Below are positions 2,323 through 54,763 of a stretch of 64,000 nt of DNA, piece by piece. Positions within the stretch are counted from its first letter, which is position 1, and every line of letters starts with the position of its first letter. The DNA is from an uncultured Candidatus Saccharibacteria bacterium (GTDB lineage: Bacteria > Patescibacteriota > Minisyncoccia > Phycocordibacterales > UBA5272): assembly GCA_964457775.1 (NCBI GenBank), contig CAYWEW010000003.1, positions 30,776 through 94,775 of the forward strand, in the 5' to 3' direction. Made by a program: the position numbers and the translations under genes. Under the pieces are notes generated by a model. The model did not search any database. It saw nothing but the letters and a program-made list of their open reading frames with translations, and was not told the DNA's origin.

Positions 2323-3207
2323 ATGGTAGATAAATATACAGCAGTTTGGGTGTCGCATTCGTCAATGGGGGATTTTCTAAAATGCCCTCGTCTTTATTAT
2401 TTGCATAATATGTATAAGAGTCCAAAGACTGGACATAAAGTTTCTATTGTTAGCCCACATATGTCACTTGGTATTGCTGTGCATGAAGTATTGGAAGGTC
2501 TAGCTGAATACCCAGCTAATGAAAGAATGAGCCGTGATCTTCGTGCGAAGTTCGAAGAGTCATGGTTAAAAGTTACAGGAAAGAAAGGTGGTTTCACTAG
2601 TAATGAAGAAGAGGAAGAATTTAAGCAAAGAGGAAAGGAGATGATTAATAATGTTATCAAAGATCCGCGATTTTTGGTTAATAAATGTATTAAGCTTAAG
2701 CGTGATACGATGCCGTGCAATTTTTATTTGAGCGAGGATCACAATATTATTTTAAACGGTCTAGTTGATTGGTTGGAATATTTACCACTTACAGATTCAC
2801 TTCATATTATTGATTTTAAAACTGGAAAACATGAAGAAAAAGAAAATTCTCTTCAGCTTCCAATATATCTTTTACTTTGTAATGCGCTTCAAAAAAGAAA
2901 AGTAACCAAAGCAAGTTATTGGTATCTTGAAAGTGATAAGATGGTTGAGGCTACTCTTCCAGATATAGAAACAGCAGAAAAGAATGTTTTAGAAGTTGCG
3001 ATGAAGGTAAAAGAGGCTAGAAGAATTGCAAAGAATGAAGGGGAGGGTAAAGTTTTTGTTTGTCCTGAGGGCGCTTATAATCCTATAACTAAGGAAGGTG
3101 GATGCATGAATTGTAGGCCTTATGAATGGATAATAAACGGTGATGAGAGAATGGAATCAGTTGGTGTTGGGGGATTTAGTCAGGATATGTATATTGTGAG
3201 GAAATAG
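2323..3207 (+). CDS. PD-(D/E)XK nuclease, Cas4/RecB-like with 4-Cys cluster
   Basis: N-terminal C-P-x motif (FLKCPRLYY), catalytic IIDFKTG, QLPIY (QhxxY) motif and C-terminal C-x13-C-x2-C. Confidence 0.8.
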   Translation: MVDKYTAVWVSHSSMGDFLKCPRLYYLHNMYKSPKTGHKVSIVSPHMSLGIAVHEVLEGLAEYPANERMSRDLRAKFEESWLKVTGKKGGFTSNEEEEEFKQRGKEMINNVIKDPRFLVNKCIKLKRDTMPCNFYLSEDHNIILNGLVDWLEYLPLTDSLHIIDFKTGKHEEKENSLQLPIYLLLCNALQKRKVTKASYWYLESDKMVEATLPDIETAEKNVLEVAMKVKEARRIAKNEGEGKVFVCPEGAYNPITKEGGCMNCRPYEWIINGDERMESVGVGGFSQDMYIVRK

Positions 3208-34437: not shown

Positions 34438-34587
34438 AAATATTTATTAGTAGGAGTTTTATATTCATAAAACGAGGCATATTTTAATCTTAATTAGTTT
34501 GTTGAATAGTAGTGATGTTGGTATTTCAAGTAATTAAGAAGAATAAAGGAAACTTTAAACTAAGTATTTTAATGATATAATGAAGGC

Positions 34588-34967
34588 GGTGCAGTAGTTG
34601 TGCGCCAAGTGTTCTTTTTAATGCAATTCAAGATAAGGATCCAATCATGAAAAATTGTGATAAGTGTCTCAAGTCACCCATTGTAACCGGAGCTGATATC
34701 AAGAGTTACAGACACGGTCTCCACATGAATGTGAATACTTTTGCTGGAGTTTTTTAAACCAGTCGGCAGAATGTCTCACGGCTTGAGCGATTGAATCGCC
34801 CACTTACAGAGGAGGAAAAAAGAAGTTTGCGCTTCGTTAGAAAAGACTGGAAATTTGATCCAAAGAAGTGTCGCGAGACTTTGATGGTTGATTCCAGAAA
34901 CCAATAAGCCCATTGATGTACCAAACAGTAACAACAACACTGGAAGTATGTCAGTGGGTTGTTTTTT
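34588..34967 (+). ncRNA. candidate orphan transcript (unknown RNA or cluster of micro-ORFs)
   Basis: Extended -10 TGATATAAT at 34573-34581; hairpin + T6 at 34931-34967; no ORF of at least 60 aa on either strand; GC-richer than flanking DNA. Confidence 0.3.
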
Positions 34968-35020
34968 GTGTATTAGTAACTACCAACTATTTACTATTAG
35001 ATATATACTGAATTAATAAT

Positions 35021-51599: not shown

Positions 51600-52580
51600 A
51601 TGTCAAAGAAAATCTTAGTTTCTGGAATCAAACCAACAGGGAGACTTCATTTTGGGAATTACTTTGGTGCAATGAAGCAGAATATTGACCTATCAAATTC
51701 TGGAGAATATGAGAGTTATGTTTTTATTGCTGATTATCACGCTCTCACAACTGTCCGAAATGGTGATGAGTTGCGACAGCAGACTATAGAAGCCGTTGCT
51801 TCATACATTGCTTGTGGACTGGATGTTTCAAAAGTTGTTTTGTTCAAGCAGTCATCTGTTCCTCAAGTTACTGAACTAACTTGGATTTTTAATAACCTCG
51901 TAACTATACCGTACATGATGAGAGCTCATGCATTCAAGGATAGAGAGGCAAAAAACGAAGAAGTTAATTTAGGTCTTTTTGATTATCCAGTACTTATGGC
52001 TTCTGACATTTTAATTTACGGTGCTGATATTGTTCCAGTAGGGGCTGATCAAAAGCAACATGTAGAATATGCTCGTGATATCGCTGGATATTATAATCGT
52101 GCGTATAATGTTGAAGAATTTAAATTACCGAAAGATTTGATAATTGAAAATGTTGCCTCACTCCCTGGTGTAGATGGCCAAAAGATGAGTAAGGGGTATA
52201 ACAATCACATTGAACTATTTTGTTCTGATGAAGATTTAAAAAAACGAGTGATGAGTATTGTCACTGATAGTGCGAGTCCAGAAGACAAGAAGAATCCAGA
52301 TGAAAATAATATTTATAAAATTCATAAACTTTTCTTGAATGAAGAAGAGGATAAAAATTTGCGTGAAAAGTTTGAAAATGGTGGATATGGATACAAGCAA
52401 GCAAAGGATGATTTGCTTGTTACTATTATGAAGTGGAGAGAGGGAAAGAAAGAGAAGTACGATGAACTACTATCGGACACATCTTTTATACTTAATCTCT
52501 TAAAAGAAAATGGTGAATCTGCGAGAATTAAAGCAGAAGAAAAAATGATTATAGTTCGTAAGCAGATTGGATTGGAATAA
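51600..52580 (+). CDS. trpS: tryptophanyl-tRNA synthetase
   Basis: HIGH-region TGRLHFGNY, KMSKG. Confidence 0.92.
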   Translation: MSKKILVSGIKPTGRLHFGNYFGAMKQNIDLSNSGEYESYVFIADYHALTTVRNGDELRQQTIEAVASYIACGLDVSKVVLFKQSSVPQVTELTWIFNNLVTIPYMMRAHAFKDREAKNEEVNLGLFDYPVLMASDILIYGADIVPVGADQKQHVEYARDIAGYYNRAYNVEEFKLPKDLIIENVASLPGVDGQKMSKGYNNHIELFCSDEDLKKRVMSIVTDSASPEDKKNPDENNIYKIHKLFLNEEEDKNLREKFENGGYGYKQAKDDLLVTIMKWREGKKEKYDELLSDTSFILNLLKENGESARIKAEEKMIIVRKQIGLE

Positions 52581-52809
52581 TAATATGAACATGGAAAAGA
52601 TACCAGAACAAATACCGATGGATTTTGGAGATACATCAAGTAATCAACAAGCGAGTGCCACGGCTCTCTCTTGGAAAAATAATCCCAATATAAAACCAGA
52701 TGCATCACAGTTTCCTGATAGTGAAAATATAATTAATATTGAATTTAGAAACGGTGAATGGATGGTAATTTATAGACCAGATGATGCTGGTGAAATGTAT
52801 AAGCGATAA
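52567..52809 (+). CDS. hypothetical small protein
   Basis: ORF only; start may be at 52585. Confidence 0.3.
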   Translation: MDWNNNMNMEKIPEQIPMDFGDTSSNQQASATALSWKNNPNIKPDASQFPDSENIINIEFRNGEWMVIYRPDDAGEMYKR

Positions 52810-52853
52810 CCGCTGTCTATCCCAGGCCTTGCTTAGATAGATAAATTTATATT

Positions 52854-52881
52854 TTGATTTTTCACTAAAATTTGTTAGAAT
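52854..52881 (+). promoter_or_regulatory. promoter TTGATT-N16-(TG)nTAGAAT
   Basis: Good -35/-10 with extended TG. Confidence 0.5.
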
Positions 52882-52887
52882 TTTTGC

Positions 52888-53155
52888 ATCCAGTCACTGA
52901 TGTTTAGTGTCTCTCCGTTAAGGATTCAGTCGTGGAAGGGCTGTTTAGATACCGGTTAAGGAATACATGCTCTGATGACAACAACTTCCATGAATTAGGA
53001 AAAGTGTTGTCTCGTGGTAAAATCCACAAAAGTCGCTCCACCGAGAAGTGTTGTACGGGTTCAAAGAGTTATATCAGTTTCGCGATTCGGAAAGATTCAC
53101 AACCTCGCGCCGAATACATCCCCGCAAACAAAACATCAGTTTGCGGGGATTTTTA
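52888..53155 (+). ncRNA. candidate ~270-nt structured RNA of unknown class ending in an intrinsic terminator
   Basis: Promoter upstream; ccccgcaaac-N9-gtttgcgggg + T5 at 53120-53154; no plausible ORF; repeated ccg(g)ttaagga motifs. Confidence 0.35.
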
Positions 53156-53159
53156 TTTC

Positions 53160-53187
53160 TTGCATGCTTATACATATGTGATAGTAT
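53160..53187 (+). promoter_or_regulatory. promoter TTGCAT-N16-TGaTAGTAT for the aspS leader
   Basis: Starts directly after the preceding terminator. Confidence 0.5.
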
Positions 53188-53193
53188 AAATAT

Positions 53194-53353
53194 AAGCATT
53201 GATGAAGCTGACAACTTCGGAGCAAAGGTTAAATTTAATAAATAAGAGTGGCTACAATAAGTAGCAAGGTATGGTGGCACCACGGTTCTCCGCAATCGTC
53301 CGTACACAAATATACACTAGTTGTATATTTTGTTTACGGACTATTTTATTTTT
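53194..53353 (+). promoter_or_regulatory. T-box riboswitch leader (Asp specifier GAC in a short stem-I hairpin) controlling aspS
   Basis: T-box core AAGGUAUGGUGGCACCACGG at 53266-53285 (cf. AAUUAGGGUGGNACCGCGG). Terminator hairpin gtccgtacacaaatatac / gtatattttgtttacggac 53299-53341 plus U-run abuts the ATG. GAAG-CUGACAA-CUUC hairpin at 53204-53218 puts GAC+A in a 7-nt loop. Confidence 0.5.
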
Positions 53354-54763
53354 ATGACAAGAACTTATATCAAAGACATTTCTCAAAATATTGGAAGTGA
53401 AGTAACAGTTAAAGGTTGGGTTGATGTTAGACGTGACCAAGGGAAAATGGTTTTCCTAGATTTACGTGATGTTACAGGCAAAGTACAAGCTGTAGTACTT
53501 CCTAACCATGTAGAGGCACTAGAAGTCGCACAAAAGGTCCGTCCAGAATGGGTGCTCGCAGTTACAGCACAGGTTAATAAGCGCCCAGAGAAGAATATAA
53601 AGGTAGGTGTTGTAGGGGGTGATGTGGAACTTGAAGTTTTGGCAATTGAAGTTTTGAATGAAGCTACTACACCCGCTTTTGATATTTCTACGGACGGATA
53701 TGAAGTTGGTGAGGAGGTACGTCTTGAATATAAGTATCTTGATCAACGTCGTGCTCGCATTTTACATAATATAAAAATGCGCCACAAGGTAGTGAAATAC
53801 ATTCGTGACTATTTCGATGCGAATAATTTCTTTGAAGTAGAAACACCATTACTCACTAATCCAACACCAGAAGGCTCACGTAGTTATTTGGTCCCATCAA
53901 GAGTACATACTGGTAGTTTCTATGCTCTTCCACAATCTCCACAACAGTATAAGCAGTTGTTAATGGCGGGAGGATTTGAAAGATATTTCCAAATAGCCAA
54001 GTGTATGCGAGATGAAGATACTCGTGGTGATAGACAACCAGAGTTCACTCAATTAGATATTGAAATGAGTTTCGTTACTCAAGAAGAAGTGATGAAAACA
54101 AATGAAGAATTGTTAATTAAATTAGTCACTGACTTATTCCCAGATAAAATAATTCAAACTATACCATTCCCAGTATTAACCTATAAGGAAGTAATGGAAA
54201 AGTATGGAACAGATAAGCCGGACCTAAGAGAAAACAAAGAAGACAAGAATCTTTTGGCTTTTTGTTGGGTAATTGATTTTCCAGCATTTGAAAAAACAGG
54301 AGAAGATAACGTGGACGGAACAGGTGAGTGGACTTTTACCCACAACCCATTTACAGGAGTAAAGAAAGAATTCACCGCTGATTTAATTGAAAAGAAAAAT
54401 ATTGGAAGTATTATTTCTACTCAATATGACGTTGCTATGAATGGATATGAATTAGGTGGTGGAGGTATACGTCTTCATAAAGCAGAGGAGCTTAGAAAAG
54501 TTTTTGAAATTATGGGGTATAGTGATGAAAGAATTGAAAGTAATTTCGGTCATATGTTAAAAGCTCTCGCATCAGGTACGCCACCACATGGAGGAATTGC
54601 ATGGGGATTAGACAGGCTACTAATGATACTTCTTAATGAACAAAATATTCGTGAAGTAATGGCATTTCCAAAGACAGGTGAAGGGCGAGATATACTCATG
54701 CAAGCACCAAGTCCTGCACCAGATAAGACACTTAGAGAATTAAAAATCTCAATTACAAAATAA
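53354..54763 (+). CDS. aspS: aspartyl-tRNA synthetase, short (GAD-less, archaeal/ND-type) form
   Basis: OB domain plus class II motifs (FYALPQSPQQYKQLLM, GGGIRLHK); 469 aa. Start at MTRTYIKD (ORF-track 53321 overlaps the terminator). Confidence 0.9.
   Translation: MTRTYIKDISQNIGSEVTVKGWVDVRRDQGKMVFLDLRDVTGKVQAVVLPNHVEALEVAQKVRPEWVLAVTAQVNKRPEKNIKVGVVGGDVELEVLAIEVLNEATTPAFDISTDGYEVGEEVRLEYKYLDQRRARILHNIKMRHKVVKYIRDYFDANNFFEVETPLLTNPTPEGSRSYLVPSRVHTGSFYALPQSPQQYKQLLMAGGFERYFQIAKCMRDEDTRGDRQPEFTQLDIEMSFVTQEEVMKTNEELLIKLVTDLFPDKIIQTIPFPVLTYKEVMEKYGTDKPDLRENKEDKNLLAFCWVIDFPAFEKTGEDNVDGTGEWTFTHNPFTGVKKEFTADLIEKKNIGSIISTQYDVAMNGYELGGGGIRLHKAEELRKVFEIMGYSDERIESNFGHMLKALASGTPPHGGIAWGLDRLLMILLNEQNIREVMAFPKTGEGRDILMQAPSPAPDKTLRELKISITK

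Follow-up and report, generated by a model that had tools for sequence, protein, structure and literature searches.

What occupies the interval between trpS and aspS at positions 52854-53155 of this 64,000-nt stretch of DNA (the window, meaning the whole stretch that was analysed), where a promoter and an intrinsic terminator would delimit a transcript? The first-pass annotation left three answers side by side: an independent small RNA (sRNA), a second regulatory leader in tandem with the T-box of aspS, or a divergent housekeeping RNA. The independent sRNA is now favoured, because the unit has its own promoter, a covarying terminator and compensatory changes in its helices, contains no conserved open reading frame (ORF) and occurs independently of the T-box; the two other options are not supported. 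The best explanation of the whole would be a stand-alone sRNA gene of a new, narrow family that acts in trans by base pairing, to which we give a probability of roughly 0.55. The more limited claim, that the unit is a discrete RNA gene under selection, can be made with somewhat greater assurance. It would add a new family to the bacterial sRNAs, an ordinary class of gene, and appears to be very narrow and dispensable. It appears to be neither a housekeeping RNA nor a part of the T-box leader.

The unit and the signals at its two ends are as follows.

52854-52881, + strand: promoter, with a -35-like TTGATT (52854-52859), a 16-nt spacer (as the scan scores it) and an extended -10 element TGTTAGAAT (52873-52881)
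~52888-53155, + strand: candidate RNA unit of ~265 nt, between a 74-residue ORF and the T-box leader
53118-53158, + strand: intrinsic terminator, a perfect stem of 12 bp that closes a 9-nt loop, with UUUUUAUUU after it

The promoter-to-terminator unit had been put at ~270 nt, and ~265 nt are indeed found between both signals, with the transcription start predicted near 52888. The promoter string TTGATT-N16-TGnTAGAAT at 52854-52881 is present exactly as described, and the strong terminator reported at 53120-53154 could be mapped to a stem at 53118-53150. The absence of an ORF also holds, since the + strand ORFs overrun the terminator and none is conserved in the homologs. The G+C content is 0.42-0.46 in the unit versus ~0.34 in its surroundings.

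A sigma-70 scan alone performs at chance level (12 sites versus 10.4 expected). For the extended -10 motif TGnTA[GT]dAT, 13 of the 27 + strand copies in the window are intergenic, with intergenic DNA making up 14% of it. All five copies of the exact 9-mer TGTTAGAAT are in intergenic DNA, and three of them sit 7-81 nt before a gene start. The extended -10 motif clearly appears to mark promoters in this genome. A TGTTAnnAT/TGTTATATT element lies upstream of all four known copies of the RNA, that is the window copy and its homologs in the loci L086, L087 and L093. At the equivalent site, the extended -10 of L087 is identical to that of the window, and L093 and L086 read TGTTATTAT and TGTTATATT, respectively. 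In L093 the terminator of another unit precedes the RNA homolog, so the RNA needs its own start there.

That other unit in L093 (3172-3365) is a second, unrelated promoter-to-terminator unit of ~160 nt that separates the RNA homolog from the small ORF. It is closed by a 12-bp long-range helix (GGUUCCUUAAUGC / GCAUUAAGGACC), contains UUAAGGA and has no Rfam match. Elsewhere in the window (e.g. 7163, 8629, 11484, 24933 and 47503), several extended -10 elements are found a mere 7-10 nt ahead of the start codon of the ORF that follows, which suggests that many mRNAs of this organism are leaderless. Another ORF-poor stretch of ~580 nt at 34440-35020 carries an extended -10 TGATATAAT at 34573-34581, two tiny ORFs (~36 and ~26 codons) with Shine-Dalgarno-like (SD-like) sequences, and a U-run at ~34960.

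The terminator arms are ATCCCCGCAAAC (53118-53129) and GTTTGCGGGGAT (53139-53150), followed by TTTTATTT, and the hairpin has a folding free energy (dG) of -20.5 kcal/mol with a z-score of -6.9. It is found in all four homologs with a dG of -18.9 to -20.5. One G-C to A-U double change is observed between the arms, and one pair of the stem is lacking from both arms in L093. A simple terminator scan overlooked the hairpin because its 9-nt loop exceeds the 8-nt limit of the scan.

The RNA homologs were located by using the neighbouring 74-residue ORF as a handle. This small ORF has seven homologs (eight loci in total, proteins of 56-74 aa), and a diverged RNA homolog comes directly after it in L086, L087 and L093, as the RNA itself does in the window. 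The ORF stands without the RNA in L092, L094, L095 and L096, so that 4/8 loci have the RNA and 4/8 do not. A covariance model (CM R1) built from the window, L093 and L086 recovered L087 independently (37 bits, E 3e-6) and recovered nothing besides L087 in the 649 kb searched. The three homologs are ~205-215 nt long, compared with ~265 nt in the window. Alignable parts of the RNA are 76-89% identical and the neighbouring coding DNA is 75-90% identical. Because this identity equals that of the coding flanks and the stems carry compensatory changes, the unit does not look like a neutral remnant. The family, with four known members, appears to be undescribed and confined to one narrow Paceibacteria/Nomurabacteria-like lineage (Parcubacteria, candidate phyla radiation (CPR)). 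The window itself is assigned to this group by the relatives of its AspRS.

From its 5' end, the RNA would consist of a hairpin, a core with a GNRA-type hairpin and P3, none to two variable hairpins, P5, a further hairpin and the terminator. The elements of the window copy upstream of the terminator are these.

52887-52902, + strand: hairpin P0, CAUC-CAGUCACU-GAUG, identical in L087 and L093
52905-52964, + strand: conserved core, with the possible P1, P2, P3 and then CGGUUAAGGA (52953-62)
52907-52912 / 52947-52952, + strand: possible P1, GUGUCU / AGAUAC
52914-52924, + strand: P2, UCC-GUUAA-GGA; L086, L087 and L093 have a GUAA tetraloop here
52927-52931 / 52939-52943, + strand: P3, stem CAGUC / GGCUG with the invariant loop GUGGAAG (52932-52938)
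52977-53027, + strand: module A, with hairpins A1 (GACAACA...UGUUGUC, 52977-53011) and A2 (GUGG-UAAAAU-CCAC, 53014-53027)
53033-53044, + strand: P5, stem UCG/CGA with the invariant 6-nt loop CUCCAC (53036-53041)
53085-53090 / 53110-53115, + strand: module B hairpin, AUUCGG / CCGAAU, with an overlapping alternative helix CGCGA/UCGCG

Comparative covariation, which had been proposed as a check at first pass, was run on the homologs, and P3, P5 and the terminator show compensatory changes. The P3 stem reads CAGUC/GGCUG, CAGUU/GACUG, CGAUC/GGUCG and CCUUCUUAUU/AAUAAAGAGG in the four copies; both sides have changed in 3/6 pairs, and 96% of cells are paired. The P5 stem reads UCG/CGA in the window, UCG/CGG in L093, GUUG/CAAC in L086 and GCAA/UUGC in L087, with both sides changed in 3/4 pairs versus 0-1 in slid controls. 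The G.U pairs in P3 and P5 are compatible with the + strand only, and a U-run 3' of the terminator hairpin is also found on the + strand only, from which the + strand is taken as the RNA strand.

The other elements are less certain. P0 is weakly supported, because L086 replaces the whole hairpin with another 6-bp hairpin (CACUCA-GACCU-UGGGUG) and no pairwise covariation is seen, and the pairings P1 and P2 are unproven. P1 as a helix of a three-way junction was considered and rejected, as were two long-range pairings of the window copy. One of these, between 52896-52908 and the terminator loop at 53128-53140 (13 nt, 92% complementary), exists in the window copy only and the loops of the homologs differ; the other, a 5'/3' helix of the minimum free energy structure of the window, is absent from the homologs. 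Module A is common to the window and L086 and absent from L093 and L087. The window, L087 and L093 have module B in common, and L086 lacks it; RNAalifold chooses the module B helix, whose pairs are invariant. The window copy has all modules, and the distance from core to terminator is ~85-155 nt among the homologs.

The internal repeats noticed at first pass are present, with ccgttaagga at 52915-52924 and ccggttaagga at 52952-52962. The former is kept in 4/4 copies as CCGU(U)AAGG and the latter in 3/4 as CGGUUAAGG. A 12-nt direct repeat is also found at 52999-53010 / 53043-53054 (GAAAAGUGUUGU / GAGAAGUGUUGU). It connects module A, common with L086, to the segment after P5, common with L093, and may be the microhomology by which modules were swapped or lost. 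A type III toxin-antitoxin (ToxI-like) RNA is a poor match to the unit: direct repetition comes down to this one two-copy repeat and the short ccg(g)ttaagga pair, and the adjacent ORF has no family and goes without the RNA in half of its loci.

How such an sRNA might work can be sketched from its loops. The RNA would act in trans as a base-pairing regulator without Hfq, with the exposed CUCCAC loop of P5 as a seed for GUGGAG/GGAG-like sequences at the translation-initiation regions of its targets. This assignment of the seed is tentative, and sites for the 6-mer complement of the loop are too common to be informative. The loops of P3 and P5 are complementary to each other over 5 nt (GUGGA x UCCAC), which is suggestive of a contact. 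The internal GUGGAAG loop may mask the seed through such a 5-bp kissing contact, or it may hold a compact fold together.

Several observations weigh against the proposal of a trans-acting sRNA gene. The core folds like shuffled sequences (z ~0), and the RNA as a whole reaches a z-score of only -2.0, with a better value of -3.9 on the reverse strand. The covariation statistics are thin with four members, and shuffle controls matched them in 3-10 of 500 runs, a count that is not to be read as a probability. P1 never varies and is broken in L093, P2 is invariant, and the two complementary loops are also invariant, so that covariation gives no handle on the pairing between them. The target search with exact complementary k-mers in the 64 kb remained at chance level, and no CsrA, Hfq, YbxF or KhpA is found within the window. 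Finally, close relatives do without the RNA. L092 lacks it and has the T-box, and a relative with a 91%-identical AspRS has a spacer of 42 nt without small ORF, RNA or T-box. Any function of the RNA must be dispensable or very niche, because these two relatives lack it.

The loss in L092 is also informative about the locus. Its homology to the window restarts exactly at 53151, in the U-run of the terminator, and reaches 97% over the T-box, with ~79% on the trpS side. Among the window, L086 and L092, identity is ~79% on the trpS side versus 95-97% on the T-box/aspS side. Because identity jumps across it, the spacer between trpS and aspS appears to be a recombination joint and the RNA an accessory cassette; the RNA would be an accessory, not an essential, gene in a recombination-prone spacer. 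The synteny of trpS and aspS is usually kept in 80 species-representative genomes, with spacers from 5 nt to ~2.5 kb. These spacers hold unrelated small ORFs or genes on either strand, differing by genome (L001-L096; 52581-53353 in the window).

Beyond the four loci, the RNA was not found. Neither blastn and nhmmer with the RNA nor the CM gave a match in 80 syntenic loci (GTDB species representatives), and the RNA is absent from the syntenic spacers of ~90 relatives that were searched. A core pattern gave no match in JGI metagenomes, and a module-B pattern gave one chance match there, inside a GC-rich gene. Scans of viral contigs (IMG/VR) returned 0, 0 and six chance matches, the last in coding DNA. 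No sign of a mobile-element origin is seen, because blastn against phages and plasmids gave no match; no terminal repeats flank the unit.

The neighbours of the unit, which matter for the alternatives, are arranged as follows.

51600-52580: trpS, the upstream gene
52585-52809, + strand: the 74-residue ORF, starting 4 nt after trpS and outside the RNA
53160-53350, + strand: second promoter and T-box leader, outside the RNA unit
53160-53187, + strand: promoter of the T-box, TTGCAT (53160-65), N13 and TGATAGTAT (53179-87)
53354-54763: aspS, the downstream gene

The small ORF belongs to no Pfam family, and its structure model is a beta-hairpin (pLDDT 72) with no fold match. Across the eight metagenomic loci known, it shows an optional in-frame insertion of 14-18 residues (GDTSSNQQ...).

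Several kinds of gene could in principle give the same picture. Were the unit a small protein gene or a leader peptide, the GUG in the P3 loop would be its start codon; this is the sole start preceded by an SD sequence, with AAGGA 7-10 nt before it in all four copies, and in the window it opens a frame of 85 codons. This frame even encodes Ser-Asp-Asp-Asn-Asn-Phe (GAT GAC AAC AAC), which is tempting for an attenuator of AspRS. However, the frame of the window overruns both the terminator and the next promoter, and it stops after 33, 6 and 3 codons in L093, L086 and L087, respectively. L093 and L087 have no DDNN segment and L086 has it in another frame, so a leader peptide with this run was rejected as not conserved. 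Single-base indels also separate conserved stretches (CCGUUAAGG versus CCGUAAGG; GUGUUGUC in the window versus GUGCUUGUC in L086), a 1-nt indel in module A between the window and L086 shifts all reading frames, and the covariation in the stems does not keep amino acids. A coding role is excluded on account of these indels and the early stops, and a small protein gene or leader peptide is a very improbable explanation. A divergent housekeeping RNA (6S RNA, signal recognition particle (SRP) RNA, RNase P RNA or tmRNA) that the models overlook is less credible still. The size would fit, RNAs of CPR bacteria can be divergent, and Rfam at gathering thresholds gives no match anywhere in the 64 kb. 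But a cmscan of 52500-53500 with 4227 families at E<=10 gave the T-box model as its single credible match and nothing on 52882-53155 on either strand, Rfam at E<=1 found nothing on the RNA in the three homolog loci, and ARAGORN detected no tRNA or tmRNA gene. The RNA is also absent at the syntenic site of relatives with a 79-91% identical AspRS, whole modules are dispensable, and the predicted fold is multi-branched and not a rod like that of 6S RNA; the modules are too plastic for a housekeeping RNA. The unit might instead be a cis-acting leader of aspS, either a second sensor besides the T-box or its missing Stem I/II part, with signal-dependent read-through into the gene. Its position directly upstream of aspS in all four loci would suit this, and the neighbouring T-box is an unusually minimal one that lacks both the Stem I platform and Stem II. 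The window copy also contains CCGUUA, which we take to be the F-box consensus of T-boxes. The F-box of the N. farcinica T-box is CCGUCA (PMC7583486). However, the hexamer exists in the window copy only, the other three have CCGUAA there, which gives a GNRA loop and not an F-box, and the F-box idea was rejected. The Infernal search proposed earlier, which might have merged the unit with stem I of the T-box, left it separate: RF00230 aligns end to end (model positions 1-219, full) wholly within 53190-53306 (46.3 bits, E 8e-9; gathering score 93), the second promoter separates both, and the T-box CM gave no match at E<=10 on 52882-53155, nor on the RNA of L086 and L093. The T-box leader has its own terminator and is also found in L086 (934-1049), L092 (2963-3078), L093 (3628-3744) and, at ~2830-3000, in L002, L004, L005, L019 and L037. 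Six of these loci (L092, L002, L004, L005, L019 and L037) carry the T-box without the RNA, and L087, which has no T-box, carries the RNA followed by a promoter immediately upstream of aspS. In a direct reading of the four homologs, no segment complementary to the 5' arm of the terminator (AUCCCCRCAAAC) and no GGUGGNACC-type sequence of a T-box antiterminator with a UGGN bulge was found. No riboswitch- or attenuator-like alternative to the terminator is visible, and a promoter lies between the unit and aspS. The unit does not look like an attenuator, because nothing competes with the terminator and the distance between core and terminator varies. With its own promoter on the T-box, the independent occurrence of the two elements and no antiterminator, the tandem leader proposed at first pass is not borne out, and such a cis-acting leader is quite improbable.

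The remaining alternatives concern whether the unit is a gene at all and what its fold is for. It could be the 3' untranslated region or terminator region of an operon of trpS and the small ORF, or a decaying remnant of an insertion, in which case the promoter match would be fortuitous. The spacer is hypervariable with inserts that differ by genome, modules are gained and lost, neither L092 nor the closest relatives by AspRS have the RNA, and the energy z-scores are modest. In addition, the small ORF is followed by a hairpin that makes a weak terminator, so read-through from trpS is likely. In contrast, the compensatory changes in P3, P5 and the terminator, together with the invariant loops, point to selection on RNA structure; the aligned identity equals that of the coding flanks; and the extended -10 is kept in all four copies, in L093 even after the terminator of another unit. 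We regard this explanation as unlikely. An RNA that works by its shape, with the GNRA hairpin and the kissing of P3 and P5 as a tertiary fold that binds or sequesters a protein, binds a ligand or is catalytic, seems rather unlikely too. It would account for the GUAA tetraloop hairpin in three of the four homologs (GUUAA in the window) and for two invariant, mutually complementary loops on covarying stems, and proteins might bind at the repeated (G)UUAAGGA motifs and at the five GGA triplets. However, the GGA count, which should be high in a CsrB/Rsm-type protein sponge, is near chance (~5 in 265 nt versus ~3 expected, estimated from composition; one lies in the GUGGAAG loop), the core is thermodynamically unremarkable, and the sequence between helices is gained and lost wholesale (85-155 nt from core to terminator), which is uncommon in a precise tertiary fold. 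The RNA has no linked partner protein either: the small ORF is equally often without it, and tblastn for CsrA within the 64 kb gave no match. A mimic of a translation start, with the AAGGA-N7-10-GUG of the P3 loop locked by kissing with CUCCAC, could bind ribosomes, AspRS/TrpRS or tRNA; this arrangement resembles a translation start in all four copies, and we consider such a role a long shot. The anticodon loop of E. coli tRNA-Asp is CUGUCAC and that of tRNA-Trp is CUCCAA; the loop of the 5' hairpin, CAGUCAC, is one base from the former, and CUCCAC resembles the latter. The tRNA-Asp-like loop was rejected as a conserved feature, being replaced in L086. The stand-alone sRNA gene with a base-pairing role is the reading that we prefer.

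The T-box leader of aspS is itself extremely reduced. It consists of a kink-turn (K-turn), a stem of 5 bp and, at its tip, the 7-nt loop CUGACAA (GAC for Asp, then A), followed by an A/U linker of ~22 nt, a canonical RRRxG-Stem III-AA, a UGGC bulge and the terminator. The distal Stem I platform and the Stem II/IIA-B domain are both missing. Its stem covaries in L093 (UGGGG/CCUCG). Standard annotation misses this T-box because 46 bits fall below the gathering score of 93. In L002, L004, L005 and L019 (~2850-2880), the T-box loop is UUAACAA with the specifier AAC (Asn), not GAC, and the same short AspRS of 469 aa follows. The AAC specifier would be in keeping with an AspRS that does not discriminate and charges tRNA-Asn as well. 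Short T-box leaders of aspS (98-159 nt, 34-53 bits, below the gathering score) are also seen in L027, L032, L072, L073, L074 and L076, and T-boxes in this phylum seem to be systematically under-annotated.

The genomes of Patescibacteria (CPR) are tiny, and few regulators can be recognised in them. To our knowledge, no regulatory RNA has been characterised in this phylum, and none of the papers searched dealt with small RNAs or T-boxes of CPR bacteria. A cleanly delimited sRNA with two covarying hairpins, whose invariant loops are complementary to each other, would give the study of RNA regulation in these bacteria a concrete object that is easy to synthesise, and if the start-site mimic were true, it would be a new trans-acting class tied to both flanking synthetase genes. 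Its significance is limited by the small basis of four metagenomic contigs of uncultured organisms, by the loss of the RNA in close relatives and by the lack of a target or partner in the 64 kb.

Compared with known systems, the unit resembles the T-box (RF00230) in lying upstream of an aminoacyl-tRNA synthetase gene with a terminator at its end, in its 7-nt-loop hairpins, which are similar in size to the adjacent specifier hairpin, and in the CCGUUA hexamer of the window copy. Unlike the T-box, it has no Stem I with K-turn and specifier, no T-box sequence with UGGN bulge, no antiterminator and no CM match, and it occurs independently. The raiA motif RNA, ROOL, GOLLD and OLE are orphan structured noncoding RNAs that came from comparative genomics. 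As with these, the RNA here is intergenic and independently terminated, its helices covary, and it has a GNRA loop and perhaps a loop-loop contact. In contrast to them, its size is much smaller and its distribution far narrower, close relatives differ by the gain or loss of large parts of it, covariation supports just two of its helices, and their Rfam models give no match to it. RsaE/RoxS and S. aureus RNAIII are sRNAs of Gram-positive bacteria that pair with their targets without Hfq and use C-rich loops as seeds at the translation-initiation regions of mRNAs. The RNA described here differs from them in resembling no Rfam sRNA by sequence or CM, in its internal complementary partner loop and in being known from four metagenomic contigs. 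Like them, it is predicted from sequence to be a stand-alone gene with its own promoter, a strong intrinsic terminator and several hairpins, and it would present a conserved pyrimidine-rich loop, here CUCCAC, that is complementary to GGAG-type ribosome-binding sequences.

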